Origin: an uncultured cyanobacterium
GTDB taxonomy: Bacteria > Cyanobacteriota > Cyanobacteriia > PCC-9006 > JAAUQQ01
Direction: 5' to 3'
DNA length: 64,000 nucleotides
Assembly: GCA_963718615.1 (NCBI GenBank)
Contig: OY970368.1
Span: 960,001-1,024,000, forward strand
Shown: piece after piece, positions 46,097 to 62,086 of the stretch
Numbering within the stretch: the stretch's first letter is position 1
How the letters are laid out: each line of letters begins with the position of its first letter
The notes under the pieces: model-generated
What the model was told of the DNA's origin: nothing
The model's database searches: none
Seen by the model: the letters and a program-made list of their open reading frames with translations, nothing else
Made by a program: the position numbers and the translations under genes

Positions 46097-47779
46097 CTAT
46101 ACGGGGCTTAATTGCTTGCTAATTTTGTACATCTCATCATGATTTAGCTTTAAGAGAGGCATACGAATTAAACTCCCATTTAGAGAGATGCTTCCTTGTT
46201 CCCACTCTACTACTGATCTGTTGTAGATATCTATTAAAAGTCTATCTGTAACCGTCTTAACGTCTGCAAGATTCAAGTTTTCGGAGGATAGGATTCTATG
46301 TACGACTCCGTTAAGCAATTGAAGATTAAGCACAGTAATATCTTTTTTTAGCTTCCAAACTGAATGAGTGCCAAGACCAGCACGGCACAATAGTACACTT
46401 ACACATTGAACGTTCTCGACTCTTATTTCAAATATTTCCGATATTACAGAATCACGCTCATCTTGAGGTAAATCTTGAAAACGGTTAAGTTGCTCTATTC
46501 CCTCTTTTGAACGATTTTCAACAGCTTTTGTCATTCTTGCACCTTGTGGTGGAATAGCTGCTTTCGCTTGAATATGTACCACTGTATTAGCGCTTGATTG
46601 ATAGATGAGTAAATCAAATTCTCCCTTGCTCCAATTTTTATTAGAGACGATCCTTAAACCTGGTAGTCTTTCCCATATTTCTAAAGCTTGCTTTAAAAGT
46701 GTGGGTTCAAGATGCTGTGAAACAATATTGTTGAATTGAGTCGTATTGCATCTGTTAAGAACATAGAAAATGTTTCTTGTTGCCAACATTGATCGAAGAA
46801 TATATGGGCTAAATAAATAAGAATGCGAATAATCTATTAAAGGTGGGAAAAAACCTTCACCAGAATTTTCAAAATTCTGATTGACAACATCAATAGTGAA
46901 GAAATTTAATATATTTTCAATTGCAGAACTTTTAACGTTTGTTAAAGCCATTAATAACCTTATAAAAAAGCTTTTAGCATTAAAAACTGCAACCCATTCG
47001 TAAAATTCGTGAAATAGAGTTTCCTTTCTTGTTTCACTGCTTTCATTAAGCCAAAGAAATTCTAAAGCATTTGCAAGACCAATACTGTAGTCTGCATATG
47101 CGAATAGTGCAGCCCTGATCTTACAAAACTCTTCCCATGTTGTCCCAATAGATATTTGGAAAGCGTTTGGCTCTAAAATTGGTATTTCCTTAAAACTATT
47201 TAAACGATATTGAAATAGATCGGCTAATACTCTACACATCAAAGCCATATTAATATTAGGAAGTTGATCCGCTAGTTCAATAAATTCTTGCTTTAAATTA
47301 GGAGCTTCACCAACTAAGAACGTTAAGCTAAGTTCAGTTAAAAGAACATCGTACTCTTCAGCTCTTGAAAATTCTTCATTGGGATGTATAAGCTCAAACC
47401 CTTCCTCGATTTTTCTGACCTCATAGTAACCGCGCCGTACTTCAGGCATAAGTTCGCAAAAATGGGCATAGGATACTAGCTCTCGAAAATCTTTGACGAA
47501 CAGTGCAGTAGCTGAAAAAGCATCGATTGCGCTAACTCCTATTTGTGAAGTGCATTTTCTCAGCAAAGGGATTAAGTAAGAAAGTCTACTACTTAATGCT
47601 TCACCTTCTGCTTGATTCTTAGATATGTTGTGACCAAAGCGCTCACCCTGAATCAGAATGTCGATTACCACAAATAAGCTTGTTAAAACACTCCTAAGCG
47701 GTAACTGAAACATATCAGACTGAACAATTTTGTTGTCAATTTCACCTTCGAAAGAAAAAAGATCATCTCGATCGCTCAT
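46097..47779 (-). CDS. AT-rich cassette protein with a putative C-terminal PD-(D/E)XK nuclease
   Basis: 560 aa; GEFDLLIY...VHIQAK motif. Confidence 0.55.
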   Translation of the reverse strand: MSDRDDLFSFEGEIDNKIVQSDMFQLPLRSVLTSLFVVIDILIQGERFGHNISKNQAEGEALSSRLSYLIPLLRKCTSQIGVSAIDAFSATALFVKDFRELVSYAHFCELMPEVRRGYYEVRKIEEGFELIHPNEEFSRAEEYDVLLTELSLTFLVGEAPNLKQEFIELADQLPNINMALMCRVLADLFQYRLNSFKEIPILEPNAFQISIGTTWEEFCKIRAALFAYADYSIGLANALEFLWLNESSETRKETLFHEFYEWVAVFNAKSFFIRLLMALTNVKSSAIENILNFFTIDVVNQNFENSGEGFFPPLIDYSHSYLFSPYILRSMLATRNIFYVLNRCNTTQFNNIVSQHLEPTLLKQALEIWERLPGLRIVSNKNWSKGEFDLLIYQSSANTVVHIQAKAAIPPQGARMTKAVENRSKEGIEQLNRFQDLPQDERDSVISEIFEIRVENVQCVSVLLCRAGLGTHSVWKLKKDITVLNLQLLNGVVHRILSSENLNLADVKTVTDRLLIDIYNRSVVEWEQGSISLNGSLIRMPLLKLNHDEMYKISKQLSPV

Positions 47780-47937
47780 TACTCTTACCCGCTAAATATA
47801 TAGGCTAACCTAGTCTAATATAAAGGGAGCCACCAGAGGCTTGTTACAGTTCACAACTGACACCTAACGACCTCGTTAGACTGATTGGCAAGATAGCTGG
47901 CCCTTAATTTGTTCAACGCATCCTGGTAAATCATGGG

Positions 47938-48341
47938 GGTAGTGCCTTTAGCTGGGGGATGAGTATGGTGTGGCCATTAGAGAAAGAAAAAGCAAACTGG
48001 GTAAGACCCTTCTGTGCCAATTGCAATGACTCAAGAGCTGCTTCATTGTCCTAACTGTCTATCTGAAGATATCAGCCGTAACGGCTTCAACGATCGCGGT
48101 ACTCAAAGCTATAAATGTCGAGATTGCCGTCGCCGGTTTGTCCTGACTCCGAAATCCCTTCCCTTGAGCGATCTGCGGCAAAGGGTGTCGCGCTTGGTGC
48201 GAAAGGCGCTCTCGTTTTCAAAGAAACAAGAGAACCACGAGGCTGCGATCTGGAATTTCGTTCACCATTACAACCAGCCATTGCGCCTTAAGCAGGCACA
48301 TGCCGCTTCATTCTCTCCAGCACCCACATAATTGGACTACC
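47938..48341 (+). mobile_element. Internally deleted IS1-family element
   Basis: Ends ggtagt.../...actacc; InsA Zn finger (CPNC...YKCRDC) fused to the InsB tail (LRQRVSRLVRKALSFSK...HYN). Confidence 0.8.
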
Positions 48342-48727
48342 CTAAATTGTATGGGCCAATTCCTGAGTTAGATGGGTGGTTGAGGCGACGAATTCGGATG
48401 TGTTATTGGAAACAATGGCGCAGACCGAGGACTCGCATCAGTAACCTGTTGAAGTTGGGGACACCGAAGCAGCACGCTTTTTCTACTGGCTTGAGCCGGA
48501 AGGGATATTGGCGGTTGTCGCGGACGTTGGCCACGCAGACGGGTATGACAAATGAGTGGTTGGCACAACAGGGATTGCTTTCGATTCGTGACCTATGGAT
48601 GAAAGTCCAGGGCTACGAAGAGAAGCCTGTCAGTTTGTCTAGCAGTTAGGTTGAGAACCGCCCATTGCGGAGCCGCACGATGGGTGGTGTGGGAGGGGGG
48701 ATTCGTGAGGATTCTCCCTATCCCGAT
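48342..48727 (+). mobile_element. 3' remnant of a group IIC intron (maturase tail + DV/DVI)
   Basis: LDGWLRRRIRMCYWKQW maturase; DV gaaccgcc...gtggtgtgggagg; ends ctatcccgat. Confidence 0.9.
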
Positions 48728-48846
48728 TGGGCTGCTGGCAAGACACTCAAGTTAGCGGCAATGCCATAAACTCTGCTTTTCTAGTCGCAATGTTCTGGTG
48801 TTGTTTGTCAACACAAAAATGGAATCGTACTCTGCCGAAATTCCTC

Positions 48847-50427
48847 CTATAACCTGCACGCTTCTAAGCGAGAGAAAAGACTTGGCACTCCTCTAACCCA
48901 ACCTCCCGGTCGGGGTAAATGTCCTAACGGAGCCGATGAATCAAAGATCAAATCATAATACGGTATCCAAATACTTTTTAATCGCCATCCGACGCGGTCG
49001 CCAAACTTTTCATAAGTACTATCATCATAATTGTCATCAAGCTTGCCACCACATTCTAGATAAATTTGCTTCTGAATACTGAAACCAAATTTACCGCTAC
49101 TGTATTTCACCCACAATTCATCAAGGGTGCGGAGATCTAAACAGGGGAACTGTCTTATTTCTTCCTCCCTAACCCAGTCGCTTTCTCTCCGACCAATAAG
49201 CTTGAGTATGATCTTATAAGTTTCATAATCAGCTTCTTTCCATCTCCCAGCCTTTAACAAATCTCGGAGTAAAGTATAGTCCAAACCCCGCTCAGAACTA
49301 AGGTTATCGTGGGATGCTTCAACAGTCAAAGATGAATGTTGGGTGGAAGCAGACTGCTCAGCAACTACCTGTGCTTCAATTGCTGCAATATCTTCATCTC
49401 GTAAACCTAAATATTGCCGATAGTCTTTCAGATCCCTTAGAGATCCTTCACTTATAGGATTCTCCACCTGCATTACCTCAAGCAATGCCTCTTTATATTC
49501 TTGCAGTTTGCGTCGGTACTCTCGATGAGGTTGTAAAACCTCAACCTCAATTGCATGTGCCTCCGCTTCCGACAAGCCAAGTTGTTGTTTCAATACGTGC
49601 AAGACTCTACGAGCTACAGAGGATAATTCATCACGACTGGCAAAACGTTGTAATTCTTTGCGATATCTTAGTTTTGAATTGTCTACAGGTACTTTGGCTA
49701 GCAGAATCTTGTAACCTTCCGCAGCAGTGTAAAACATAGGAGTCATTGCTGGAGCAGCCGCTCTCACTTTGGCTTGAACGTACTCATGTAATTCATCAAC
49801 AGCAATAAAACCATCACTATCTAAATCGGCTGCTCCCGTTGCAATCCCCTCAACTAAATAACGGGTATAAAGTGACAGGTCAGATTCCTCCTGCCAAAAA
49901 GCATACTGGGTAGAGCTAGAGGAGGTTAGAATAGCACGTCCAACACCACCTAACTGTGCCCGGATATCGATATGGTCGTCGTCTCTGACAGGTAAAATCT
50001 TTACATCTCGACCAAATGTTCCACTAAAATCGCAATCTAAAATGACTACCTGTCTACGAGAACGACCATTACTCATCATCTCTTGAATGAATCTAGCTGA
50101 AACAGCAGTAGATTTTGCGAATCTATCCTTATCCTTTCGAGTGTTCCGAGTAGCTAAATAAATCTCTTCATTGTCGTCTTTAATTCCATGACCAGAGTAA
50201 TAGAATAATACCAAATCATTATTCTGGCTCTTAGAAAATAAATCATCTATGGCTTCTTCCATCTCTTGTCTACTTGGATTAGCTAGTAGAGAAGCCTGGT
50301 CAAATCCACCTACTTCGGGGTCTCGTAAAACGCGAGCCATTGCCTCGGCATCTACTCCTGCGCTTGGGAGTGGATTTAACCCCAGTTCATACTCACTCAC
50401 CCCTATCAATAGTGCAATTTTAGCCAT
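48847..50427 (-). CDS. Caspase (peptidase C14)-GUN4 fusion protein
   Basis: ALLIGVSEY, FYYSGHG, LDCDFSG; GUN4 DYTLLRDLLKAGRWKEAD...GKFGFSIQK. Confidence 0.88.
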   Translation of the reverse strand: MAKIALLIGVSEYELGLNPLPSAGVDAEAMARVLRDPEVGGFDQASLLANPSRQEMEEAIDDLFSKSQNNDLVLFYYSGHGIKDDNEEIYLATRNTRKDKDRFAKSTAVSARFIQEMMSNGRSRRQVVILDCDFSGTFGRDVKILPVRDDDHIDIRAQLGGVGRAILTSSSSTQYAFWQEESDLSLYTRYLVEGIATGAADLDSDGFIAVDELHEYVQAKVRAAAPAMTPMFYTAAEGYKILLAKVPVDNSKLRYRKELQRFASRDELSSVARRVLHVLKQQLGLSEAEAHAIEVEVLQPHREYRRKLQEYKEALLEVMQVENPISEGSLRDLKDYRQYLGLRDEDIAAIEAQVVAEQSASTQHSSLTVEASHDNLSSERGLDYTLLRDLLKAGRWKEADYETYKIILKLIGRRESDWVREEEIRQFPCLDLRTLDELWVKYSSGKFGFSIQKQIYLECGGKLDDNYDDSTYEKFGDRVGWRLKSIWIPYYDLIFDSSAPLGHLPRPGGWVRGVPSLFSRLEACRL

Positions 50428-52333
50428 TGTCTATCTCATGAGTAACAAATGCTAGTAAACTGTGAATCTCATCATTATCAGACTCTATATCTAATGCCTT
50501 TCTGAGTTGCTCCTTTGCTAGTTCAAACTCTTTTTGCAGTCTCAAATCTCGACCGTACCCTAACAGTGCTTGAATATAGTTTTCTTTAGTTCGTACTGAA
50601 TCAATCTGAAATCCCCTTGCATAAAGTGCTGACGCTTTACCAAAATCCTCAATCTCTAAGCACGCTGCTGCCATATTAAGTAGAGCACTAAAATGATTGG
50701 GGTTTAAATCTAGTACCTGACTGTATAGATCAAGCGTAGTTGTCATCTCACCCTTCTGATGCAACTCCATTGCTCCTTGATAAATACGATTAGCCTCTGG
50801 CTCCAACTTCTCCAACTCTCTTATTTCCTGGCGGAGTGGATAACGTTTGATTAACCAACGGCGGACAAGTTCAATTTTTACTTTATATGCGGGTGCTTTG
50901 GAATCTTTTATAAAATCTAGGAAATTCCATTCAACCAGTCGTTTTTCAGCATCAACTAATGGTTTAGTCCGAACAACTCCATATCCCTCCAACAACTCTA
51001 GTGGTAGAACTAATTTAGATTCTACTCTGGGTAGCCCAAGTGTTAGAACCTGTCCCACACGAACGTGCTGTAATTCTGTACTGACTACAACTGCCCCTAG
51101 TCTTGGATCATAGGAAGCGATCCAGGCTGTAGAGGGTAACTCACGCATCAGATAGCTATATAACCAGGTTGGAGCACGACCCGTAATGACTATTCCAATG
51201 TTCGTATCAATCTCTTCAGGTAGCTCTAGATTTACGAGATCCTGCGGCTCGATAACCCCACTTTCAGAGAGAAGTTCTATGGTTAACCACTGATATCTTA
51301 AACCTTCATAATCTTGCTGTTCACTTAATTGAAAGCGAACTGAGGCATTAGATGTTTGACTAATGTTACTTTGAATATCTAAATCACTGACTTCTTTGTT
51401 GGCTTTCTTTTGAGCTTCTGCTACAGCCGAAAAGACAACCCGTTCAGGAATGGGCAACCCATCTCGAAACCATGCTAAACCCGCTTCACCAATCTCAATT
51501 GCTCTATCTACAATTCTTTCTACATTTTCACAAATAATTTTCCAGCTTTGTTGCTCTCGTGCGTATCCAAAAAGCGTAAAACATATTAATTGTGTAAAGT
51601 AAGGATGTCCTGCTGAGAGGTTAAGAATTGCTTGTATAGCTGCTGAATCGTACTCTAATATTTCTTTAGCAGGTTCAACAATTAAACGCTTCGCACTCGT
51701 TTCATCAAGCAAACCAATCTCTTGACTAGGCGCTTCTTTGAATAAACTGAGTAACTTTGGCATGTCATCCAGTCGTCGTCCCACAACCGGAATGAGAAAA
51801 AGTTGTTTCTGTCGATGAATGATTGACTGTAAGTAGGGAAAAAAGTGTTCAACTGCTGTCTCTGGGTTATAGCTACTTAAGACATCAAACTCATCCATTA
51901 ACAAGACTAAGTTTCTGCCTCGCAATGCTTCATAAACTTGAGACAGAAAAATGCGAGAGAAAGCACTTGAATCTTCTTTCAGTTCCGTTGCTGAAGGTAA
52001 TGTTATCTCTTCTAATGGCAGTTCAAGTTGATCGACAATTTCCATAGCAAGATAGTGCAACACATCACTAAGAGGTGTTTTGCTTCTATCTTGAAGATCA
52101 AAGAGTACAAAAGAAAACTCGTTCAATCCGACACACCTTGGAATTTGAGAGAGTACAGAAGATTTGCCAATACGCCGTTGACCATGCAGCAAAATAACTT
52201 TTGCACCTGACTTCAGATTATCCTTAACGAATTGAAATAAATTTTCTCGCCCAAAAAACAGATCTGGCTTGTCGATCGGACTGCCAATGTCATAAGGATT
52301 TCTCCGAGATTGTGGAGACATCATAATCATCAA
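50420..52333 (-). CDS. STAND-like ATPase with inserted Csx3/Crn3-like domain and C-terminal TPRs
   Basis: NPY...FFGRE, GQRRIGKSS, LLMDEFD, GHPY; GIVITGRAPTWLY...YDPRLGAVVV; TPR helices. Confidence 0.8.
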   Translation of the reverse strand: MMIMMSPQSRRNPYDIGSPIDKPDLFFGRENLFQFVKDNLKSGAKVILLHGQRRIGKSSVLSQIPRCVGLNEFSFVLFDLQDRSKTPLSDVLHYLAMEIVDQLELPLEEITLPSATELKEDSSAFSRIFLSQVYEALRGRNLVLLMDEFDVLSSYNPETAVEHFFPYLQSIIHRQKQLFLIPVVGRRLDDMPKLLSLFKEAPSQEIGLLDETSAKRLIVEPAKEILEYDSAAIQAILNLSAGHPYFTQLICFTLFGYAREQQSWKIICENVERIVDRAIEIGEAGLAWFRDGLPIPERVVFSAVAEAQKKANKEVSDLDIQSNISQTSNASVRFQLSEQQDYEGLRYQWLTIELLSESGVIEPQDLVNLELPEEIDTNIGIVITGRAPTWLYSYLMRELPSTAWIASYDPRLGAVVVSTELQHVRVGQVLTLGLPRVESKLVLPLELLEGYGVVRTKPLVDAEKRLVEWNFLDFIKDSKAPAYKVKIELVRRWLIKRYPLRQEIRELEKLEPEANRIYQGAMELHQKGEMTTTLDLYSQVLDLNPNHFSALLNMAAACLEIEDFGKASALYARGFQIDSVRTKENYIQALLGYGRDLRLQKEFELAKEQLRKALDIESDNDEIHSLLAFVTHEIDNG

Positions 52334-52408
52334 TCCTGAGCCATGAGATCGAAGAGAAGACAGTAAAACAACTATAAGTAGAACACGTACTCTATACTCA
52401 ACAAGCAG

Positions 52409-53707
52409 CTAACCTGACACAAACCCTTTGGGAATGGCACTAACTAGCTTGCTAACCCATTCAATAACAGAGGGCACTTCGTCCTTATGCTGCCACAAAT
52501 ATCGAATCCCAGTTTTAACTTGCTCTGCTTGCTTGCTGCTCATTAGGTTGAGAAAAACCTTTTGGCGTTGTTGAAGTTCCTCCTCGTTGCTATTCTCGAT
52601 TTCTTTAATTACCCACCACTCCATCATTGACGAGGCAAATGCATAATTTGGTCTGCCCTGTTGCATAGTTCGGATAATTACTCCCCGTTGTTCCAAATCT
52701 GTCAATTCACGCTCTCGTTGACTAAAGACGATGCTGATGTCGCCCAAGTCATAATTCTTACGCTGTAAACGACCTTTTAGATTAGATAGAGCAATCAACA
52801 TTAGAAGTGTCTGTTCCTCCTGATTTGACATTTCCCAGGTTTGTTGGAAAAATTGTTCAGTTGCACTCAGGAAGTCTCGCGTGAATGCTTCAGGATCGGG
52901 CATCTGCCCAGTATGGAGTTTGTCATATAAAAGATAACCAGCATGTTGAATCAGTGCTGGATGTCCATCAGTAATTTCTCGAATCCCCTCCCGCAGTGCC
53001 GTTGTCATTGGCATACAACCTAATAAAGTATCAATTTCACTATCAGTAAATGGTTTGAGAGGTTGAAATAGGTAGTGATTATACCACGGAGACTTATCTG
53101 GCGAGAGCTTGGGTCCAAGTTCGTTGAGCCGACGAAATGAAGTCACGATCATTGAGAGACAACCTTTACTCTGAACTGCCAGGTTACGAGTCTCGCTCAG
53201 GAATATCTCTATGCTGCTCTCCTTATACTGATCATGCGGACGGAAAGCAGCATCATAGTTATCTAGCAGCAGCAGTAGAAACTTATTTTGTTTTCCTATT
53301 TGCTTCAAGAACTGACGTAAGTCATCCTTTGTTGCTTCAGCCTTCCTAAGGGATTGGTCGATCCCAGTTTGTAAAAGGTCATCATCAACAAGTTCGTCCT
53401 TGATCAAGCTTAGGATCTCTCGCCAGAAGGTAGCTGGTAGAAAGGGCATTATGCCCAAGCAGTCCAGGTAGATAATGATAGATTCAGAATGTTCACATCC
53501 ATAGTGTTGCCAAACTTGAGGAGAAATCAGCAGTTCCAAAAAAGATGACTTACCCATCCCCGCTCCACCCCAGATGGCTAAACTGCTACGACTAGCGATT
53601 CGATCAAAAGCAATACCAATTTCAGATGCCCATCCGACAAAGCTTTCTGAAGAAACTAACTTTCCAGGAGAAAAGGGATTTTTTGACATGGCATTCGCTG
53701 AGTCCAA
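52409..53707 (-). CDS. STAND-like P-loop NTPase
   Basis: NPF, GGAGMGKSS, LLLLDNYD, GHPALIQ. Confidence 0.8.
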   Translation of the reverse strand: MDSANAMSKNPFSPGKLVSSESFVGWASEIGIAFDRIASRSSLAIWGGAGMGKSSFLELLISPQVWQHYGCEHSESIIIYLDCLGIMPFLPATFWREILSLIKDELVDDDLLQTGIDQSLRKAEATKDDLRQFLKQIGKQNKFLLLLLDNYDAAFRPHDQYKESSIEIFLSETRNLAVQSKGCLSMIVTSFRRLNELGPKLSPDKSPWYNHYLFQPLKPFTDSEIDTLLGCMPMTTALREGIREITDGHPALIQHAGYLLYDKLHTGQMPDPEAFTRDFLSATEQFFQQTWEMSNQEEQTLLMLIALSNLKGRLQRKNYDLGDISIVFSQRERELTDLEQRGVIIRTMQQGRPNYAFASSMMEWWVIKEIENSNEEELQQRQKVFLNLMSSKQAEQVKTGIRYLWQHKDEVPSVIEWVSKLVSAIPKGFVSG

Positions 53708-53900
53708 AGGTCTTGATTAGGAGTTTTCCTTTGACTAGCTTAGCCCCACTGATACTTTTTGAGTACTACTCCTACAAATAACGAGAAGCAGCCCAACGTC
53801 GTAGCTGAGCCGCACCCGTCAATCTGCCAATACTGGCGACAACGTCGTCAGGACGGCTCGCTGAGATGTGAATGCTGTCGTGTCGGCTCCAGCGCAGTGT

Positions 53901-54370
53901 GTACGCCCAGCATGGGCGTGAGCTAATGGGGTGAAAGTCCCCTGTGGGAGAACCAGCCATCCAAATGCTCGTATTAATTGGAGCCGAGAGATGGACAACC
54001 ACTAGCCTAAGGCAAGGGCGTCTTCGCGAGAAGGGGTCGGTCGGAAACCAGACTTTTGGATTGCGTCTGCTTTCGGGTAAGTCGCTTTTCTAGGCTCTGT
54101 TTCACCGTGGGAACTCCCTATTAGCGCCAGTGTCACTTGCAATGAGTTTCTGATTGCGCCCAGCTCCTAGCTTCGATCTCCCGAATTCCGAGTCGGGTCA
54201 TCGTGGGCAGATCAGGAGTCACATCCGAGTTTGATGGAAGGGACTTTCACCCTCATCAAGAGGACAGTTCAGCTCTTGAGAGTGCTTCATGTTTGGAAGC
54301 CAAGCTGGCAGAGTTATTTATGGGCTTGCACCGTTATTCATCTGCAACGAATCGCACCCCCTATCCCGAT
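53901..54370 (+). mobile_element. Internally deleted group IIC intron
   Basis: 5' gtacgcccagcatgggcgtg...gggtgaaagtccc; 3' ctatcccgat. Confidence 0.85.
54040..54357 (-). mobile_element. 5' fragment of a second (IIB-like) group II intron nested antisense
   Basis: Minus strand starts GTGCGATTCGTT and contains gggtgaaagtccc. Confidence 0.7.
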
Positions 54371-54406
54371 TAGGTGTTGCTTAGATGTCACTTATCTAAG
54401 AACACT

Positions 54407-55234
54407 TTAAACATTTGCTTGCTGTAAAAGCTTTAAAATAGAAGTTGAACGGGTCATATAGGAAAGCCCAGTATGATGAAACATTGGTGGCACAGATGTT
54501 TCATCCCAAAAATGACCAGACATGATTCCCGCAAGCAATGCAGGTCGCCAAGTCGGATCGTCTATATCCCCGCCAGGACGAAATCCTCTCGCTGGCAAAA
54601 AGACCGGGCTACCACTTGATCCAGAAAAAGACAATCCTGATACAAGAATTATATCGTCTGTCTTTATTTGGTCGTTAGTGAATGATATCTGTGGCAGAGA
54701 AGCTACTGTACATTGACGGGCTACAGGAAGTTTCCATTTTTCATCCCACCAGTGCCGGCCATTCTTCCCTGGAAAACCGATAAAGAAGGATGTTTCCATC
54801 GGTCCAATAATTAGACTATTGGCAAAGTTTTTCTCATCAATAAGGTTTTCAAACTTAAGAATTTCTCTATTTGGATCGAATGGGGTTTCTTCATGGAATA
54901 CAGGTTCAACAAGAATAGAGCAGTCAGAAGATGGGGAAGAGAATAAACAACTTTCTATATTTGCCACATCAAAGAAATCTGTATTCTCTGCAGGCTGGTT
55001 TGATTCATAATATCGTAACTCTATAGAAATCCTATCGAGCTTTAATCCTGGCTTGTCGGGGAATCTTATAGATGGATCAACATTATGTTTGTTGGTGACA
55101 AAAATATTCTTTCCAGTCTGGGAAATCATCCAAAATCCAGTACCACAACCAGATTTTTCGTTTCCTATATCATCCGTAAAATTTACTTTGATGCGGTGGA
55201 TCATCCAAAAAATCTTTGGGTTAAGACCAAGCAT
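54407..55234 (-). CDS. Trypsin-like serine protease (cassette A)
   Basis: GTGF, VTNKH, SDCSIL, SGSSGSPVF catalytic triad motifs. Confidence 0.85.
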   Translation of the reverse strand: MLGLNPKIFWMIHRIKVNFTDDIGNEKSGCGTGFWMISQTGKNIFVTNKHNVDPSIRFPDKPGLKLDRISIELRYYESNQPAENTDFFDVANIESCLFSSPSSDCSILVEPVFHEETPFDPNREILKFENLIDEKNFANSLIIGPMETSFFIGFPGKNGRHWWDEKWKLPVARQCTVASLPQISFTNDQIKTDDIILVSGLSFSGSSGSPVFLPARGFRPGGDIDDPTWRPALLAGIMSGHFWDETSVPPMFHHTGLSYMTRSTSILKLLQQANV

Positions 55235-55298
55235 ATGGCTGTTCTCAAACTTATTTATCTAAAAAACTAGGTTAGATCTAATACTTGTTGAACTGACT

Positions 55299-55545
55299 AC
55301 ACCTAACAATTTATTCTCATGCACGATGCCTGATAACTCCCTCCTCTCGCTATTCTCAAGTATCAGCGCCGTATAATCCCCAGCCATGACCTATTACCCA
55401 TGCAATTATGCTGGATAACATCCCTGGTTAGGTATTATCAGGCAACGCCGCATGATAACAACCCATTTCCAGGCATTATCCCCGCACAGCCGCCGGATAA
55501 CATCCCTGAGCAGGTATTATCAGGCATGTCTCAGTATAATCATCC
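55299..55545 (-). other. attI-like site with about 41-bp periodic repeats
   Basis: Minus strand ...gaataaatt-GTTAGGT; repeats GGATAACATCCCTG...GGTATTATCAGGCA at 55413 and 55495. Confidence 0.55.
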
Positions 55546-55717
55546 CCTTTGAGTCAGCGTAGAAAATTACAAAATCTTCACCCCCGAGTCAGGGAATCCA
55601 AAGGCTTCAGCCTCGCTTTCCATGCAAACCCAGCCGCCCCAGACACTGTCCCAAAACTGACTCTAGCCAGGGATGCTTCTGTGACATTACACCCATGACG
55701 ACTCCCCGATTCATTGG

Positions 55718-57205
55718 CTACGCCCCCAAAACCGCCTCACCCTGCCGATACAGCTCCCGCGCATAATCCGTCCATTGTCCCTGGCCCCAGTAGCGAAAAC
55801 AGCTAGTTTCTAACAACAGCACATACAAAAGCGCCGCTTGATAATCCGAACGCTGCGTCATCGCAGGATCAGCCGCCACGAGGGCGTCGTATTTTTGATG
55901 AAACTGAATGCTCAAGCGCTGCATCGGTTCAAGGACGTTTTCATAACCCTGGACCCAGCTCAGATCATTCGTCCAGGATGCCCCGTCGAGGTGAAATTGG
56001 GGGTCTGTGTCGCGCAGGTGCTGGATGGCGATCGCCACCCCCTCCGGCGTCACAGAGTCTGTCCCCAGGTGCTGCCAAATCCTATGCTGATGCACCGCCT
56101 GACAGACAGGATAATCCTCAGGCTTAGCGCCTAGGGCTTCAATCAACTCCAAATATTCCGTCCCATTCATCGCCACCGTTCCCGCAGCATTGCCCCCCCC
56201 ATCCCGAATTTCGTGATACACCCGGAAGAGATCACGGGGATACTCGTTCATCATCACACCGCCGTTTTCACCATCCGCAATCTGAGACACCAGCGACGGA
56301 ACTTCAACCTCGCCTAACCGCTGACGGCCCCAGCCCTTGGCTTCAAAATAGGGCTGCATCTGAGCCACTAGCTTGGTGTCCGATCCCTGGGTTTTAATTA
56401 ACGCCGTGATGCTGATACTTTCTCCTTGAGCGTTGCGAGCCACTAAACGGTTGGGCAAATACTTGTCAGATTGATGCAAGCCCGAGCCATCTAGCCGCTC
56501 AACGGAATGCTCTTGCACCAACAACCAGCGATAGCCACAGTCCTTCAGGGCTTTGATATATTCATACAAAACATCGGGATGATTGGGCAAATGCATCTCC
56601 GGCGGCGAAAAGCCCTTGACCCGAGCCAGGGCTGCGGTGCCAAAGGTTGCCGCAAACTGGTGCTGCCAAGCCTGAATATGAAGCTTCAGATCCGGCACTG
56701 GCGTTGAAGGAACAACCGCATGGCTCCACATCGTCCCCAACCATTCCACCTGGAGCTGATAGCGCTGATCGCAGGCAATTCGCCGCAGCTTGTCGAGAAT
56801 GTCTTGCCGCTGCATCTGTTCCAACGCCCAAAGCAAATTGCCCGAATAGTCGAGCATAATGCGGGGATTACAGCCCTGGTCAATCAGTGCGGGGATAAAG
56901 TCCCCCATGCGTCCATAGCAATCTGCAAAGACCCCGGCGTTGTGATTGTCGCCATCGTGGGGATGCTCGAACATGTGTTGCAAATTGGAAATCAACGCAC
57001 CTTCAGGACCCGCCGGAATCGTCGGCTGATGCATATGCAGCGCGCAAGCGAAGCCAGACTGGAGGCGATCGCCCTCTAAATTCGTCCTCCCCAGAAACAC
57101 TGGCTCCGTTCCCTGAACCCAATCCCGCAACTCCGCCTCTCGGCCCGCAATGGGGGGCAAGGATTGACACAGGGCCGGCAACTGAGATGTAGTTTCAGCA
57201 ATCAT
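55718..57205 (-). CDS. Glycoside hydrolase family 57 protein
   Basis: ALHMHQP, FSPPEMHLP, IADGENGG, ETSCFRYWG. Confidence 0.88.
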   Translation of the reverse strand: MIAETTSQLPALCQSLPPIAGREAELRDWVQGTEPVFLGRTNLEGDRLQSGFACALHMHQPTIPAGPEGALISNLQHMFEHPHDGDNHNAGVFADCYGRMGDFIPALIDQGCNPRIMLDYSGNLLWALEQMQRQDILDKLRRIACDQRYQLQVEWLGTMWSHAVVPSTPVPDLKLHIQAWQHQFAATFGTAALARVKGFSPPEMHLPNHPDVLYEYIKALKDCGYRWLLVQEHSVERLDGSGLHQSDKYLPNRLVARNAQGESISITALIKTQGSDTKLVAQMQPYFEAKGWGRQRLGEVEVPSLVSQIADGENGGVMMNEYPRDLFRVYHEIRDGGGNAAGTVAMNGTEYLELIEALGAKPEDYPVCQAVHQHRIWQHLGTDSVTPEGVAIAIQHLRDTDPQFHLDGASWTNDLSWVQGYENVLEPMQRLSIQFHQKYDALVAADPAMTQRSDYQAALLYVLLLETSCFRYWGQGQWTDYARELYRQGEAVLGA

Positions 57206-57225
57206 AGACAGGTCCAGGTAGATGT

Positions 57226-57525
57226 TCAGAGGAAGCGACGTTCCATAAAATCGACGATCGGCACCAGAGGGTCAGACACTAGCCCAACCCCCGCAAAGCC
57301 CCAGCGATCGATCAAGGGCTTGAGCTGCGCCACGGCATTATGTTCGACGGCAAAGCGATCGCTCAATCCCGCCGCATGGGCATTGAGATAGCTTAAGGCT
57401 TCATGGTCTTGATGAAACAGCAACAGGTAGCGCTGGAGGGGCTCATCTGCCGTCTTCGCCGGTTGCCGCGCCGTCAAAAACTCGCCCGTTTGTCGCGATC
57501 GGATGACATAATAGCTGCCCTCCAT
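57226..57525 (-). CDS. Conserved cyanobacterial hypothetical protein
   Basis: YLLLFHQDHEALSYLN...RWGFAGVGLVSDPL. Confidence 0.7.
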   Translation of the reverse strand: MEGSYYVIRSRQTGEFLTARQPAKTADEPLQRYLLLFHQDHEALSYLNAHAAGLSDRFAVEHNAVAQLKPLIDRWGFAGVGLVSDPLVPIVDFMERRFL

Positions 57526-57569
57526 TAAAGACTCCTCGTAACGGTTCGTGGGCTGAGGGTTGGCACAAT

Positions 57570-58535
57570 CTATCCCCGAGTCAATTCCGCCAGGGCCGTT
57601 TCTGGCTCCTGAAACATCGGCGTACTGAGATAGCGTTCGCCAAAGCTCGGCTGAATCATCACAATCAACTTATTCTGATTTTCCGGACGCTTCGCCACTT
57701 GAATGGCCGCACAGAGCGCCGCGCCAGCGGAAATTCCCGACAACAGACCTTCCTCTCGGGCCAACCGACGACCGTAGGCGATCGCCTGCTCATCACTCAC
57801 CCCGATCACCTCATCCAGTAACTCAGGCCGCAACACCGCCGGCACAAACCCCGCTCCAATGCCTTGAATTTTGTGAGGGCCAGGACGTCCGCCGGAAAGC
57901 ACAGGGCTGTTCGTAGGTTCAACGGCGATCGCCTGAAATCCCGGTTTCCGCGCCTTCAAGACCTCAGCCACGCCCGTAATCGTACCGCCCGTCCCAACCC
58001 CCGCGACCAAAATATCAACTTGGCCATCACTATCCTGCCAAATCTCCTCGGCGGTGGTTTCCCGGTGAATTTTGGGGTTGGCCGGATTCTGAAACTGTTG
58101 CAGCATAAATGCATCCGGCAGGCTTTCCACAATCGTCTGGGCTCGCTGAATACAGCCCGACATCCCCTCCACACCGGGCGTCAGCTCAAGCTCCGCGCCA
58201 TAGGCCCGCAACATCGACCGACGCTCTGAGCTCATCGTATCCGGCATGGTCAAAATCAGCCGATAGCCCTTAGCTGCCGAAGCCATCGCCAAGGCAATCC
58301 CTGTGTTGCCTGAGGTTGGTTCTACAAGTACGGTTTTGCCGGGTGTAATTAGACCGTCGCGTTCCGCTTGCTCAATCATGCTGATGCCAATGCGATCCTT
58401 TACCGAAGAAGAGGGATTCATACTTTCCATCTTCACGATAATCTGAGCAACGCACCCCTCTGCAACGGGGATTCGATTGAGGCGCACAAGGGGAGTACGG
58501 CCAATAAGCTGCGTGATGTTGTCGGCAATCCGCAT
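57570..58535 (-). CDS. cysK: Cysteine synthase A
   Basis: [35 protein letters not shown]. Confidence 0.96.
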
Positions 58536-58601
58536 GGTAAATTCCTCGCTTTATCTCCTCAATGGTAAGGGGTCAGGGTCAGCGCGATCGCACCCCTGTC
58601 G

Positions 58602-59039
58602 TCAGATGTAATACATCAAATCGAGTTGTTGTTGGGCATCTCGGCGTTCTGCCAAATCCTGAAGGGTGTATCCCTGCAAAACTGCTTCCTTCGCCTGTCG
58701 AGCCTCCTGCCAAACTTCGAGGATGACTCCACCCTCTGTGGTTTTGGGACTATCTTTGACCTCTCCCACCGACGGCTCAGAGCCCTCAATACATTTAACA
58801 ATTTCCAGCAGCGTAATCTGCCAAGGTTCACGCTTGAGTAAATAGCCCCCCTTGGCACCCCGCTGGCTACGGACAAAACCGGCCCGCCGCAGCGCTGCGA
58901 GCAGTTGTTCCAGATAGCGATCGGGAATGTCTTGCTTGGCTGCAATTTGGCGAATTTGCAAGGGCTCTCCTCCACGGTAATGGGAGGCTAGCTCTAACAA
59001 CGCCAACAAGGCATATGCAGTTTTACAGGAAAGTTCCAC
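58602..59039 (-). CDS. Rrf2 family regulator (CymR-like)
   Basis: YLEQLL...SQRGAKGGYLL, C-terminal MYYI; upstream of cysK. Confidence 0.9.
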   Translation of the reverse strand: MELSCKTAYALLALLELASHYRGGEPLQIRQIAAKQDIPDRYLEQLLAALRRAGFVRSQRGAKGGYLLKREPWQITLLEIVKCIEGSEPSVGEVKDSPKTTEGGVILEVWQEARQAKEAVLQGYTLQDLAERRDAQQQLDLMYYI

Positions 59040-59113
59040 CGTTCCACACAGTCATCGACTAGGGTGCTCCTAGTATATCCCGGTTCTCCACTTGGGTTTG
59101 CGGGATTCCCCGT

Positions 59114-59914
59114 CTATTCCTGAACGTCGGTGGCAATCACAACCACGGTAATGTTGTCCCGTCCGCCGTTGTCCTTGGCGGAGGCGATCAGCTTGGTGGT
59201 AACTTTTTCGCAGGCTCGGGTGTTTTTCAAGAGTTCGGCGATTAGGTGATCCGACACCTCTTCGGTTAAGCCATCGCTACAGAGCAGGAGGCGATCGCCC
59301 GGCTGCAATTCCAATTTCTGAATGCTGATATCCGCCAAATCAGGACGCCCCAGACATTGGGACAGAACATGCCGCCAGGGATGGGTTTTCACCTGGTCGA
59401 GGCTAATCACCCCCAGCTTACTGGCTTTATTCACCCAGGTATGGTCTTCCGTAATCTGATCTAGCGTCGCCCCCCGCAATCGATAGAGGCGAGAATCTCC
59501 CACATGGGCACACCAGGGTTCGACCGTTTCCAAAGATAAGCCGTCCAGGGGAGCCGTTGCCGGATTATCGAGATCCTCGGGCGGCAGCGTGCGGTGCCGG
59601 AAAATGACCGTCACCACCGTGGTTCCCATATCCGACCGCTCAGGATGATCCTGTTGGTCTTGAATAATGACTTGGTTCGCCTCGGAAAGCGCCGCTTTAA
59701 GCAACTCGGGAGACGTCATCTTCTCTTCCCAAGCCTCCTCCAGAAAGCCCCGAATAGCTTCCGTGGCCAAGCGACTCGCTTCCTCGCCGCCGGCATGACC
59801 ACCCATGCCATCAGCCACGATAAAAAAGCGACCCTCGGGATCGATGTAATAGGCGTCCTGATTTGCCGAACGGACCAGCCCGGTATCAGTCGCTCCATCG
59901 AAATACAGCTTCAT
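59114..59914 (-). CDS. PP2C family Ser/Thr phosphatase (PphA-like)
   Basis: NQDA, VADGMGGH, VGDSR, CSDGL, GGRDNIT. Confidence 0.92.
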   Translation of the reverse strand: MKLYFDGATDTGLVRSANQDAYYIDPEGRFFIVADGMGGHAGGEEASRLATEAIRGFLEEAWEEKMTSPELLKAALSEANQVIIQDQQDHPERSDMGTTVVTVIFRHRTLPPEDLDNPATAPLDGLSLETVEPWCAHVGDSRLYRLRGATLDQITEDHTWVNKASKLGVISLDQVKTHPWRHVLSQCLGRPDLADISIQKLELQPGDRLLLCSDGLTEEVSDHLIAELLKNTRACEKVTTKLIASAKDNGGRDNITVVVIATDVQE

Positions 59915-59945
59915 CAGCCTGCGATCCTCTCTAGATTCCTGACGC

Positions 59946-61688
59946 TTACAGACGGTCTAGGCGGTTGAGACGCAACATCAACCGAATAAAGGCGATGCCA
60001 ATCCCAAGCGCCGCAATAAACAAGATCACGGCAAAGGGAAGCTTACCATAGACCAATAGAATTGATGCCGAAATTGTAAACGCCCCGAGTAATACGGCAT
60101 AGCTGGTCCCCATCTGAATACTACCCAAACGGCGGAGAAGGCGATCGCTTTCCGTCGACCGCACGCGCACGCGCACATCTCCCTGTTCCAGCTTGTCTAG
60201 GGTATCTTCAATCCGTCGCGGTAGCCCCAGGGCGGTGCTACTGACTTGCGCCGCTTGGCGACCGAGCTCATCGAAAAAGCCTGAATTGGAAGAACCGCCG
60301 TTGGTCATGATGTCGAGGGCAAAGGGTTTGGCTACCTCCATAAAGTTAAACTCGGGATCGAGCCCCTTGCCAACCCCTTCAAGGGTAGAAAAAGCCCGCA
60401 TCACAAATGTAAAGGTCGCAGGAAACCGAAAGGGCTGACCATAGGCAACCTCGTAGAGGTCATCGCTGATCGTTTCAATAGACTGCTCCTCAAAGGGCTT
60501 GTCCATGAAATGGTCGAGCATGTATTGAATGGAGCGACGGACCGGTCCCATATCCCCGGTGGGCACCAACGCCCCCAGCTCAATCAGGGAGTTCATGACC
60601 TGTCCGGCGTCTTTCTGGGCAATGCCAAAGAACGTTGACAGGAGCTTTTGACGCATATCTGAGCGAATCCGCCCCATCATGCCAAAGTCATAAAAAATTA
60701 ATGAGCCATCGGCACTCACGGCCAAATTGCCGGGATGGGGATCCGCATGAAACAGACCATAGTTTAAAATCTGCCGCAGGTAGGCCTCGGCTCCCATGCG
60801 GGCCAGCAGTTTGCGATCGAGTCCTGCGGCTTCGAGGGCCTGGTAGTGGCTAATCTTGATGCCGGGCATATATTCCAGCGTCAACACCCGAGGCGAGGAG
60901 TAGCGCCAGTAAACCCGAGGAACCTTGACCCAGGCCTGTTCTCGAAAATTGCGCCGGAACGAGTCAGCGTTGCGCCCTTCATTGAGATAATCGATTTCCT
61001 CCCAGAGGATTCGGCTACATTCTTCGTAGATTCCTAGCCAGTCCCGTCCTTGGCCCCAACGCGGATGACGCTGGAAGTAGCGCGCAATGCCCCGCAAAAT
61101 TTTGAGGTCAATCTCAAACAGCCGCCGCAATCCATAGCGCTGGATCTTGATGGCCACTTCCTCGCCGGAATGCAGTTGGGCTTTGTGGACTTGCCCGAGA
61201 CTGGCGGCGGCGATGGGCGTTGGCTCAATTTGCTGGAAGAGCACCGATACATCTTTGCCCAGATCCTGCCGGATAATCTGACAGGCCGACTCAAACGAAA
61301 AGGCCGGAACCCGATCCTGAAGCTTGGAGAGTTCCTCCACATATTCTACGGGAAACAGATCGGCCCGAGTGGAAAAGAGCTGACCGACTTTAATAAAAGT
61401 TGGCCCCAAATTCAGAAACGATTCCCGAATCCAAATCGCCAGTATCCGTCTACGGGCGGCCTTATTTTCCTCCGTGGGTCCATCTAAATAGGACCAGTCC
61501 TTGCCATCTCGCCACAGTCGAGCCGTGAGCAGCAGCACAAAGGACCAAATTTCGACAAAACGACGCTGGGACGAGTAGTTGCCTCGGTTCCAGCGATATT
61601 GGCTGCCATAGTCTCGCTCAGCCGAAGGGGCGATCGCCTTTGACGGGGGCAAAGATTTAAGATGGCGCTCAGACATTCCAGAACTCAT
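59946..61688 (-). CDS. ABC1/UbiB/AarF atypical kinase
   Basis: LGPTFIKVGQ, AAASLGQVH, HADPHPGN, YDFGM. Confidence 0.92.
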   Translation of the reverse strand: MSSGMSERHLKSLPPSKAIAPSAERDYGSQYRWNRGNYSSQRRFVEIWSFVLLLTARLWRDGKDWSYLDGPTEENKAARRRILAIWIRESFLNLGPTFIKVGQLFSTRADLFPVEYVEELSKLQDRVPAFSFESACQIIRQDLGKDVSVLFQQIEPTPIAAASLGQVHKAQLHSGEEVAIKIQRYGLRRLFEIDLKILRGIARYFQRHPRWGQGRDWLGIYEECSRILWEEIDYLNEGRNADSFRRNFREQAWVKVPRVYWRYSSPRVLTLEYMPGIKISHYQALEAAGLDRKLLARMGAEAYLRQILNYGLFHADPHPGNLAVSADGSLIFYDFGMMGRIRSDMRQKLLSTFFGIAQKDAGQVMNSLIELGALVPTGDMGPVRRSIQYMLDHFMDKPFEEQSIETISDDLYEVAYGQPFRFPATFTFVMRAFSTLEGVGKGLDPEFNFMEVAKPFALDIMTNGGSSNSGFFDELGRQAAQVSSTALGLPRRIEDTLDKLEQGDVRVRVRSTESDRLLRRLGSIQMGTSYAVLLGAFTISASILLVYGKLPFAVILFIAALGIGIAFIRLMLRLNRLDRL

Positions 61689-61771
61689 GCGAGACCTACA
61701 GGCACGCTATCACTCCCTAACTTGCATTTCCCGAACTTACAGCCGTGGCATCTATAGCCTCGATCATCTCC

Positions 61772-62086
61772 CTAGCGGTGCTGGTTGCGATATTCCTGAA
61801 GCTTGGAGCGCAGCAGTGCCACCTCAGCTCGCAGATCGTCAATCGTTTCCTGAAGATCGCCACTACTGGGCATTCCCCCCGGTGAGGTCGAGCCTCCCCG
61901 TTCGCTGCTCGCTTGCGCGGCTCGATTCAGCACCTGCTCTGAAAAGGTCCGCAGTTTTTCTCGCTGTTCCGCATCAAATTTACCCAGATCACTGAGGGCA
62001 TTGGATAATACAGCTTCGACCTGCTCATTCAGGCCCTCTGCCAGAGCGCGTCCAACAAAGAAGGCTTGTAGCACCGGATTCGTCAT
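61772..62086 (-). CDS. Conserved cyanobacterial coiled-coil protein
   Basis: AFFVGRALAE...DLQETIDDLRAEVA. Confidence 0.75.
   Translation of the reverse strand: MTNPVLQAFFVGRALAEGLNEQVEAVLSNALSDLGKFDAEQREKLRTFSEQVLNRAAQASSERGGSTSPGGMPSSGDLQETIDDLRAEVALLRSKLQEYRNQHR

Follow-up and report, generated by a model that had tools for sequence, protein, structure and literature searches.

Features of the Locus

The window analysed here is a 64,000-nt stretch of a cyanobacterial chromosome. In it, two broken copies of an attC-targeting intron lie on either side of a defence-like cassette of three genes. The features identified were, from left to right:

47937-48341, plus strand: IS1-family remnant with a 455-bp internal deletion, which abuts and truncates intron remnant 1
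48342-48727, plus strand: intron A remnant 1, the last 386 nt (maturase tail, domain V, domain VI)
48332-48649, plus strand: maturase tail ORF (Pfam GIIM 24.6 bits, cut-off 23)
48657-48688, plus strand: domain V of remnant 1, a predicted hairpin
48690-48725, plus strand: predicted domain VI of remnant 1, whose bulged branch-point A is at 48720
48728-48735, plus strand: presumed vestige of an attC R'' side, TGGGCTGC, belonging to the attC of the three-gene cassette
48847-53707, minus strand: three-gene unit between the two sites (Pfam, PADLOC), made up of the next three genes
48847-50427, minus strand: caspase+GUN4 gene (Pfam GUN4 137 bits, Peptidase_C14 75 bits)
50420-52333, minus strand: nSTAND NTPase-Csx3-TPR gene (Pfam Cas_csx3 90 bits, nSTAND1 31 bits)
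52409-53707, minus strand: AAA/NACHT-like ATPase gene (sub-threshold AAA_22/NACHT matches only)
53788-53900, plus strand: attC site 1, bottom strand (R' box GCCCAAC at 53791-53797, L'/L'' stems, GT of R'')
53901-54051, plus strand: part a of remnant 2, covering the initial ~144-151 nt of intron A, with the 5' end GTACGCCC...
54052-54357, minus strand: part b of remnant 2, covering the initial ~306 nt of intron B (IIB-type), with its 5' end GTGCG at 54357-54353
54358-54370, plus strand: part c of remnant 2, the final 13 nt of intron A, cccctatcccgat, read directly
54371-54380, plus strand: remaining R'' bases of attC site 1, TAGGTGTTGC
54407-55234, minus strand: trypsin-like gene, the cassette owning attC site 1, which follows its 3' end

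Direct reading of the sequence showed that the junctions given in the earlier note, at 48727 and at 53900/54371, were exact to the base. At the left junction, ctatcccgat (48718-48727) runs straight into tgggctgc (48728-48735), so that TGGGCTGC directly follows cccgat. At the right junctions, agtgt (53896-53900) is followed by gtacgcccagcatgggcg from 53901 onward, and ctatcccgat (54361-54370) by taggt (54371-54375), giving agtGT / intron 53901-54370 / TAGGT on the plus strand. A start of intron A at GTGTACG (53899) was considered and dropped; uninterrupted attCs read ...TTGTTAG, which places the start at 53901, in agreement with the earlier coordinate. Both intron fragments are on the plus strand, whereas the ORFs around them run on the minus strand. 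Between 46097 and 63750, every ORF of 110 aa or more (11 in total, those inside a longer ORF left out) was on the minus strand, which bears out the orientation, opposite to the cassette genes, that had been noted for the introns.

Two Remnants of One Intron Family

Both fragments had a match in the same 1980-nt intron of another genome (L034). The segment 53901-54044 was 93% identical to its first 144 nt (E 1e-55) and 48342-48727 was 86% identical to its last 409 nt (1572-1980; E 3e-139). As judged by these alignments, the matches are far beyond chance and assign the two fragments to one cyanobacterial family of class C group II introns, designated A. Part a of remnant 2 was also 84% identical to positions 1-150 of L035 and 95% identical to L033; remnant 2 keeps the first ~150 nt of domain I. 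The last 13 nt of A were matched exactly in remnant 1 and in L034/L035. Six other genomic copies carry this 13-nt end, four of them exact or one base off, the others differing at 2 and 3 of the 13 positions.

In remnant 1, the predicted fold of 48657-48725 (-41.2 kcal/mol, z = -3.7) comprises a domain V hairpin followed by domain VI, whose bulged A lies 8 nt from the end. Its domain V was 82% (32/39) identical to that of a class 1 integron intron. Rfam searches had a mixed outcome. There were no matches at gathering score in the window, nor anything relevant at E<=10 in 47500-55000; the fuller relatives did match, L034 to group-II-D1D4-3 (83 bits) and D1D4-1 (56 bits), and L035 to group-II-D1D4-3 (44 bits) and Intron_gpII (42.5 bits). 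With no Rfam group II match in the window, the class assignment rests on these relatives.

Blastn and tblastn searches of the genome with full-length A and B gave fragments and no intact copy of either, and GIIM occurs once in the genome, at remnant 1. These results upheld the view that both introns are deleted remnants. As no RT and no complete ribozyme are left in the genome, A and B are both fossils.

Class of Intron A

The window holds the maturase tail only, and the RTs of relatives stood for A in our comparisons. The RT of the near-full-length relative L034 scored 299 bits against the GsI-IIC RT, as compared to 133 against LtrA (IIA) and 86 against 6ME0 (IIB); its scores against the solved IIC RTs were 299, 216, 212, and 211 bits. 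The relative L035 has one open RT match, of 226 aa at 73% identity. In a tree of 12 rows, based on the RT domain only, the L034 RT fell in a 100/100 clade with the class C RTs, apart from B, consistent with the class C maturase proposed earlier.

Within this tree A grouped with an intron of Methylocalor that is also at TTGT/ (support 91/88), and the two lay outside the clade of four terminator-targeting introns (95/96). A and two class 1 integron introns were in an open polytomy. The RT of A was 55-61% identical to those of the two class 1 integron introns and 65% identical to that of the terminator-targeting Brucella anthropi intron. The IEPs of IIC-attC introns are described in PMC3001079 as a monophyletic clade with 100% bootstrap.

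attC Site 1 and the Target of Intron A

The GT at 53899-53900 together with 54371-54380 restores GTTAGGT (= GTTRRRY), which is split by the intron. Despite the interruption, attC site 1 scored 28.7 bits (E 5e-5) against model R2, made from 18 other, uninterrupted sites of this genome only, and 54 bits against model R1, whose training set includes the site itself. When the exons were joined in silico, they formed one long hairpin in which the R' and R'' sides were paired; the interrupted strand was without such pairing. These analyses indicate that 53788-53900 plus 54371-54380 is a real attC. No further attC of the same family was found in the window (best other matches E 0.23 and 0.64), so attC site 1 is an isolated relic and not part of an array. 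BLAST of the site against the genome gave no repeats, and the attCs here are not identical in sequence.

Across the genome, the attC model found 28 sites at E<=1, clustered near an intact integron integrase and four integrase-fragment loci. The intact integrase (TIGR02249 443.8 bits, cut-off 265) is encoded 10.4 kb to the left of the window. Only one site is beside it, 268 nt upstream, and this would be in keeping with the 82-112-nt palindromic sites being some other repeated hairpin, REP-like or terminator, used by class C introns. We regard that explanation as very improbable because the RYYYAAC and GTTRRRY-like ends pair and the inner stems covary. Across the 18 sites, 80% of cells pair compared with 67% in shuffled alignments, 13 of 22 pairs vary on both sides, and the covariation score was 0.384 versus 0.154 when shuffled and 0.06-0.10 with slid partners. 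The clustering with the integrase gene and its fragments argues in the same direction, as do same-strand arrays in relatives, spaced ~0.4-0.8 kb apart (e.g., 5 sites in 3.2 kb at L039, the intron-bearing one counted). In addition, three attCs of a plasmid-borne class 1 integron were detected by the model (40.5, 28, and 19 bits), against none in four terminator-type loci, and an IS110-family element has entered at the same spot in 6 of the 28 sites.

IIC-attC introns are reported to enter the attC bottom strand (PMC3001079), with TTGT/T in R'' as the target and an orientation opposite to the cassettes (PMC7923331). The near-full-length relatives of A in other genomes were likewise at TTGT/T of an attC bottom strand, antisense to the cassettes. 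The 5' exons of nine relatives and of the window end in GT; the distance upstream to an ...AAC box is 74-83 nt in the relatives and 105 nt in the window. At the insertion point of A, 18 uninterrupted sites of this genome read ...TTGTTAG.... Model R2 matched the intron 5' exon at nine of ten relative loci, L036 being the exception, versus none of four terminator-targeting class C loci. An attC-like site was present at each of the ten other family-A 5' junctions that were inspected, and the window site itself reads cagtGT/TAGGT at a model-supported attC. Together, the RT scores, the attC-model matches and the parallel with a class 1 integron intron (below) sustain the original reading of a class C, attC-type intron at GT/T of R''.

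A Second Intron within Intron A

The stretch 53901-54370 had been read as the remnant of a single intron, and this stands for parts a and c. Intron A is present there only at 53901-54051 and 54358-54370; about two-thirds of the stretch is instead the 5' end of another intron, B, of IIB type, inserted on the opposite strand 13 nt from the 3' end of A. Parts a and b join in the microhomology GAAACCAG at 54044-54051. The B fragment was 96.6% identical to a Leptothoe sp. contig, in which B continues for at least 1.8 kb, and 74-78% identical to sequence lying immediately 5' of ORFs with RVT_N, RVT_1 and GIIM domains in two further genomes (L054/L055 ORF: RVT_N 105, RVT_1 122, GIIM 36 bits). Intron_gpII domain V matches of 49.6 and 47 bits follow the ORFs of the B relatives. 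The protein of a B relative was closest to the IIB maturase 6ME0 (235 bits versus 117 for a IIC RT); we therefore assign B to the IIB-type introns, a label that comes from the protein match and not from an RNA subclass. The conserved interior was also considered as a transposon guide RNA or other ncRNA, and this was dropped because it is the antisense of a domain I that precedes a gene for an RVT_N RT.

The 5' end of B, followed by 13 nt of A and the remainder of an attC R'', occurs in 10 places in four sources, namely the window, six more places in the genome and three elsewhere. B is cut on its 3' side, or by the contig end, in all 10. An intact A::B composite was not found by searching for the junction pattern, which gave one relevant genome contig (plus one match expected by chance) and two metagenome contigs, with B truncated or contig-cut in all. 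Copies at two different attCs, the window's and 4666540-4666888, share the internal deletion, which suggests either that a composite element has spread or that gene conversion has acted between copies at separate sites.

At 470 nt, 53901-54370 is near the length of a class C ribozyme and has correct 5' and 3' ends, and it might be taken for a complete, ORF-less, active mini-intron with the six other copies as its 5'-truncated retro-copies. Those six share its 3' end (0-3 differences in 13 nt) with different attC remainders, and the copy at 4666540-4666888 has the same internal junction. We rejected this possibility as extremely improbable: there is no domain V, Rfam gave nothing even at E<=10, the folding energy is ordinary (z = -0.67), and 54052-54357 is the antisense of domain I of another intron. 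Moreover, two of the six truncations abut other repeats and so look like DNA-level events.

The chimera of A and B is our reading of remnant 2. Based on it, we speculate that B may be a hyperparasite, that is, a IIB-type lineage homing to the antisense strand of domain VI of A, although we would put the chance of this at somewhat below even. A comparison of EBS1 and EBS2 of B with the last 13 nt of A gave one 6-mer candidate each, not above chance (an estimated ~3 expected per 700 nt). If this speculation is correct, B would land in integron arrays in the cassette sense orientation and would split domain VI of A above the branch-point helix, and the A::B composite may have stayed mobile. Within the portions of the literature that our search covered, no description was found of IIB-type introns nested repeatedly, and in antisense, within a IIC-attC intron.

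The Second Site and the IS1-Family Remnant

The earlier note described two consecutive attC sites. The model and the fold support this for 53900/54371; at 48727 what remains is an 8-nt vestige, from which we infer the attC. The vestige TGGGCTGC fits the continuation after GT of uninterrupted attCs (e.g., TATGCTGC and TCGGCTGC), and no attC-model match was found left of 48728. The rest of this second attC and 1.57 kb of the intron are gone, beside the IS1-family remnant. The two halves of that remnant (47934/47938-48172 and 48173-48341/2) were each 97.6-99% identical to the same nine other genomic places, where they are ~455 bp apart. Its ORF at 48014-48331 matched Zn_ribbon_InsA (34.8 bits) and, just below the cut-off of 24.1, DDE_Tnp_IS1 (23.2 bits). 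The presumed attC at 48728 was removed by an IS-associated deletion and not by the intron itself.

Remnant 1 might instead have inserted behind a hairpin of terminator type that followed the caspase-GUN4 gene, in which case the window would have one attC and the three-gene unit would never have been a cassette. The whole 5' exon is missing, leaving no hairpin to inspect, and the lack of a model match to the left is compatible with this, as is the lack of an attC at any of 11 homologous caspase-GUN4 loci. Furthermore, introns of the attC lineage are reported to keep some use of terminators (PMC7923331). We nevertheless consider this origin unlikely, as the 3' exon fits the extended R'' pattern T-R-K-N-C-N-G-C, the other family-A junctions were uniformly attC-like, and the unit begins right after the R' box of attC site 1, as expected of a cassette.

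The Three-Gene Unit and Its Probable Fixation

We take the three-gene unit to be a cassette, flanked by attC site 1 and the presumed attC vestige. PADLOC matched it to PD-T4-6 (145 bits), caspase (58 bits) and Csx3 (93 bits). The product of the neighbouring trypsin-like gene matched Trypsin_2 below the cut-off (17.6 bits) and PADLOC PDC-S45 (55 bits). The same cassette with an intact attC was not found elsewhere; the best caspase-GUN4 homologues were at most 53% identical, and with no attC at their 11 loci the cassette status of the unit depends on its two flanks only.

The unit is without an attC of its own and the R box of the upstream attC is split; the host integrase can thus probably no longer excise it. 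It is plausible that the intron remnants "lock" the cassette in place. The locus may be read as a fossil of the change from cassette to fixed chromosomal gene set, in which one attC was split by an intron and the other was lost in an IS-associated deletion. What remains is a caspase/Csx3/STAND-NTPase unit of the kind seen in defence islands.

Proposed History

We consider it highly probable that the locus is a small relic of an integron cassette array that underwent two insertions of A, truncation by IS1, and invasion by B with a deletion, after which the introns were left as fossils and the cassette was probably fixed. In this scheme, reverse splicing would have carried A into two adjacent attCs, on their bottom strand and between GT and T of R'', and entry into that strand would have placed it antisense to the cassette genes. 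The insertion at 53900/54371 is demonstrated; that into an attC at 48727/48728 we infer. Copy 1 would then have been struck by the IS1-family element, with loss of its first ~1.57 kb and the rest of the attC. Copy 2 would have been invaded by B on the opposite strand, 13 nt from the 3' end of A, and a single deletion at a short microhomology could have removed most of A and B, leaving A(1-~150) + antisense B(1-~306) + A(last 13). The order of the B insertion, the deletion and the IS event is our reconstruction.

Comparison with Known Systems

Terminator-targeting class C introns (Brucella anthropi pOANT01; Rhodoferax, Providencia and E. coli plasmids) resemble family A in having a class C RT (51-65% identical), in the lack of long exon pairing and in insertion just past a hairpin. 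Unlike family A, they form a clade of their own, begin with GTGCGCC directly behind a GC hairpin and a T-run, and have flanks unmatched by the attC model.

Two other cases are also comparable. Like bacterial twintrons such as those of Trichodesmium (PMC4649490), the locus has one group II intron within another in a cyanobacterium. In classical twintrons both introns have the same orientation and splice sequentially, whereas B is antisense to A and so could splice from a cassette-sense transcript only. UHB.F1 (PMC7923331) is likewise a truncated IIC-attC intron antisense to cassettes, in that case 5'-truncated. The integrons and CALINs of hypersaline samples in that report also have IIB-class introns with attC arrays and an IS adjoining the array. 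The IIB introns described there are beside or after the attC, whereas here B is inside a IIC-attC intron, antisense, at a junction that recurs in 10 places.

Family A is also like the IIC-attC introns of mobile integrons (S.ma.I2 / E.c.I7 / Kl.pn.I1; PMC3001079), which share the class C RT, the TTGT/T target and the anti-cassette orientation. The aadA1 attC intron of a Pseudomonas putida VIM-2 plasmid (NZ_MF564290) reads gaattgt/GTACGCCCAGCATGGGC ... cccgat/TAGAC, and family A similarly starts GTACGCCCAGCATGGGC and ends CCCGAT; 50 of 56 aligned bases (7 exon, 49 intron) were identical, and the RTs were 61% identical over 223 aa. The host here is a cyanobacterial chromosome, whereas theirs are proteobacterial plasmids; both copies here are dead fragments, and the large cassettes are of a defence-like kind rather than resistance genes. 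A Pout is reported in most members of that group (PMC3001079), whereas no outward sigma-70-like promoter was predicted on either strand of 53650-54450, which includes the kept 150 nt of A. Introns of the attC-targeting class C, known mainly from proteobacterial integrons, thus extend to the chromosomal integron relics of cyanobacteria, where the target rule TTGT/T and the intron ends are the same. Intron A, the IS110-family element and, via A, intron B mark attCs in this genome, and offer an independent, sequence-only means of certifying them.

Junctions and orientation of the inserts

Direct reading of both junctions bore out the bases named in the earlier note:

Site 1, plus strand: agtGT up to 53900; insert 53901-54370 (gtacgccc ... 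ctatcccgat); TAGGT from 54371
Site 2, plus strand: ctatcccgat up to 48727, then TGGGCTGC

Both inserts were on the plus strand and all 11 ORFs that reach 110 aa in 46097-63750 (ORFs nested in longer ones left out) were on the minus strand, confirming that the introns are antisense to the cassette genes. Where the junction falls, 18 uninterrupted sites in the host genome read ...TTGTTAGNC..., which placed the insertion point at TTGT/T and the intron start at 53901, in agreement with the start proposed earlier.

Intron family A is a class C group II intron

Rfam lent the intron call no direct support in the window, where nothing matched at the gathering score; the sole match in 47500-55000 was an irrelevant snoRNA (E 9). 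Remnant 1 (48342-48727) is overlapped by an ORF (48332-48649) encoding the end of a maturase domain (GIIM 24.6 bits, cut-off 23), and 48657-48725 folded as two elements, a domain V-like hairpin and a domain VI whose bulged A stands 8 nt before the end (z = -3.7). The host genome and those of 60 relatives were searched with 53900-54371, and 15 of the 61 gave matches. The 1980-nt element at L034, a locus in another genome, was matched by both window pieces, 53901-54044 to its first 144 nt (93%) and 48342-48727 to its last 409 nt (86%). Rfam recognized L034 (group-II-D1D4-3 83 bits, D1D4-1 56 bits) and a second such locus, L035 (D1D4-3 and Intron_gpII, 42.5 bits), and L034 codes for a frameshifted RT (RVT_1 110 bits) and maturase (GIIM 48 bits). 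Since the L034 element matches both pieces, the 53901-side and 48342-48727 fragments are the 5' and 3' ends of a single family, A.

RT structure scores of L034
GsI-IIC RT (IIC): 299 bits
Three further IIC RTs: 211-216 bits
LtrA (IIA): 133 bits
6ME0 maturase (IIB): 86 bits

Together with a 12-row RT tree, these scores showed that family A is a member of class C. The tree set class C apart from intron B, described below (100/100), joined the L034 and L035 introns with a Methylocalor plasmid intron (91/88), and placed four introns that start GTGCGCC directly 3' of a hairpin and T-run in a separate starred clade (95/96). Class C, as suggested in the earlier note, stands; the 12-row tree did not place the two introns from class 1 integrons relative to A and gives no placement for the IIC-attC clade.

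The target is the attC core

Alignment of the 5' exons of nine relatives and the window revealed GT immediately 5' of the intron, an ...AAC box 74-83 nt upstream (105 nt in the window), and covarying inner arms (CAGCGG/CCGCTG, GAGCGG/CCGCTC, CACCCG/CGGGTG). Model R1, an attC covariance model trained on these exons, picked out 28 host-genome sites with E<=1, 18 of them uninterrupted when read at the junction. In these 18, 80.1% of cells formed pairs, versus 67.0% in shuffles (0 of 500 reached the observed value), and the covariation score was 0.384, compared with 0.154 after shuffling and 0.06-0.10 when partners were slid. Model R2, trained on the 18 alone, matched the interrupted window site at 28.7 bits (E 5e-5) and, on a plasmid with a class 1 integron, detected three attCs (40.5, 28 and 19 bits). 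The model matched the intron-bearing site at 9 of 10 relatives' loci (L036 was missed), with further same-strand sites spaced ~0.4-0.8 kb apart at several, and found no sites at four terminator-type loci, which upheld the earlier claim that these introns target the attC core.

One relative has a densely packed cassette array at locus L039 (G052:C22, minus strand), with five attC-model hits in 3.2 kb, all on the same strand and including the intron-bearing one (3380-3477).

Remnant 2 contains a piece of a nested antisense intron

The insert at site 1, previously read as one intron remnant, is so only in its outer parts:

53901-54051 and 54358-54370, plus strand: the only bases of A
54052-54357, minus strand: antisense piece of intron B

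Relatives of the interior, conserved and covarying, occur in other cyanobacteria. There they are antisense to the stretch just upstream of an RVT_N, RVT_1 and GIIM ORF, downstream of which Rfam matched a domain V (49.6 and 47 bits). The encoded protein was nearest to the IIB maturase 6ME0 (235 bits versus 117 for an IIC RT). Based on these relatives, and on the minus-strand reading starting GTGCGATTCG at 54357, the interior represents the 5'-terminal ~306 nt of a second intron, B. Its insertion point is 13 nt before the 3' end of A, which in the domain VI fold falls between C75 and U76. In a Leptothoe sp. contig, B continues for at least 1.8 kb beyond the identical A/B junction, with 96.6% identity to the window. 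The deletion joint falls in the microhomology GAA(A/G)(C/T)CAG; a nested A::B element would have become the 470-nt chimera by one deletion.

The host genome holds six further pieces with an antisense B 5' end, 13 nt of A and a T-RRRY-like remainder, an arrangement also present on two metagenome contigs. In every copy B is cut on its 3' side (48, 188, 194, 210, 217, 226, 306, 306, 759 and at least 1815 nt). Five host copies (3909269, 4656221, 3844574, 2244074 and 293168) end 188-226 nt from the 5' end of B. In two of the six (4666540 and 3909269) the truncation adjoins other repeated elements, and the internal joint of the window copy recurs in 4666540-4666888, which has a different attC remainder. 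These copies may have arisen by repeated homing of B into copies of A or by spread of the composite. Three more fragments of A, without B, are at 788899, 815476 and 4720414. Neither A nor B has any RT-coding part left in the host genome, consistent with the view that both introns are dead remnants.

Site 2 lies beside an IS1-family element

Homology to A begins exactly at 48342, and immediately left of it (47937-48341) is an IS1-family element with nine more genome copies, relative to which it has a 455-bp internal deletion. Left of this element the sequence is unique and the attC-model search found no attC. From this edge and the lack of an attC further left, the intron's first ~1.57 kb and the entire attC bar TGGGCTGC appear to have been lost beside the IS. 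As TGGGCTGC agrees with the local R'' continuation (compare TATGCTGC and TCGGCTGC), site 2 was probably an attC. The earlier claim of two attCs thus holds for site 1, given its R2 score, and is probable for site 2, of which TGGGCTGC alone is left.

Between the gene at 46097-47779 and the IS1 remnant, 47859-47886 (plus strand; ACCTAACGACCTCGTTAGACTG) has R'-like and R''-like boxes back to back without inner arms (R2 11.9 bits, E 0.64). This may be a collapsed attC or a chance match.

Integrases and other attC sites of the host genome

An intact integron integrase (G000:C1:948656-949594; TIGR02249 443.8 bits, cut-off 265) lies 10.4 kb left of the window, with one attC 268 nt upstream and no further attC found beside it. 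This attC is one of three 112-nt hits with a common right flank, gttaattcgtagcgga (G000:C1:948277-948388, 4665885-4665996 and 5045049-5045160). Integrase fragments or pseudogenes occur at four more loci (G000:C1:3859666-3860405, 4646232, 4712672-4713822 and 1907122), each near clusters of attC hits, and several decayed integrons seem to be present in this genome. All seven intron remnants with an attC hit within 10 kb are on the same strand as that hit.

At 6 of the 28 attC-model hits (G000:C1:2245200 onward, or L078 436-1701; 1919952, 4836367, 4717583, 3852924 and 3845693), (T)ATGGGG(G)GAC... follows in place of GTTAGNC. The element at 2245200, of more than 1.5 kb and inserted after ...GTT of the attC, encodes an IS110-family transposase (DEDD_Tnp_IS110 96 bits, Transposase_20 59 bits); in its behaviour it resembles the IS1111 group, which targets attC.

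Gene content and predicted consequence for the cassette

48847-53707, minus strand: three genes between the sites (caspase and GUN4; nSTAND NTPase-Csx3-TPR; AAA/NACHT-like ATPase, from sub-threshold hits only)
54407-55234, minus strand: gene upstream of the site 1 attC, trypsin-like, PADLOC PDC-S45 match

The three-gene unit, next to which the trypsin-like gene lies, is a candidate defence module; genes from 57570 onward resemble housekeeping genes. Homologues of the caspase-GUN4 gene were found in 68 of 121 genomes of relatives (E<=1e-30), with no attC near them at the 11 loci read. When the site 1 exons were joined in silico, the bottom strand folded into one hairpin with its R' and R'' sides paired, and with the intron present this pairing was gone. 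The three-gene unit has lost its own attC and the R box of the upstream attC is split, so the unit is probably fixed by now.

Comparison with known attC-targeting introns

Passages of PMC7923331 and PMC3001079 place IIC-attC introns in the bottom strand of attC, at TTGT/T within R'' and against the direction of cassette transcription, and family A follows this rule. Passages of these papers and PMC4889954 also cover IIC-attC introns, truncated ones in CALINs, IIB introns near integrons, IS-driven array decay and cyanobacterial integrons; "cyanobacteri" is absent from the main text of PMC3001079 and PMC7923331. No title or abstract listed by our literature search described an attC-targeting intron from a cyanobacterium or a IIB intron nested in antisense, which is weak evidence of absence. 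Overall, the earlier observation is real and its reading as remnants of attC-targeting introns correct. In a canonical case, the intron between qacEdelta1 and aadA1 on the P. putida plasmid NZ_MF564290 reads gaattgt/GTACGCCCAGCATGGGC ... cccgat/TAGAC and is identical to family A at 50 of 56 aligned bases (7 exon and 49 intron). The finding belongs to a known kind, with one unusual add-on.
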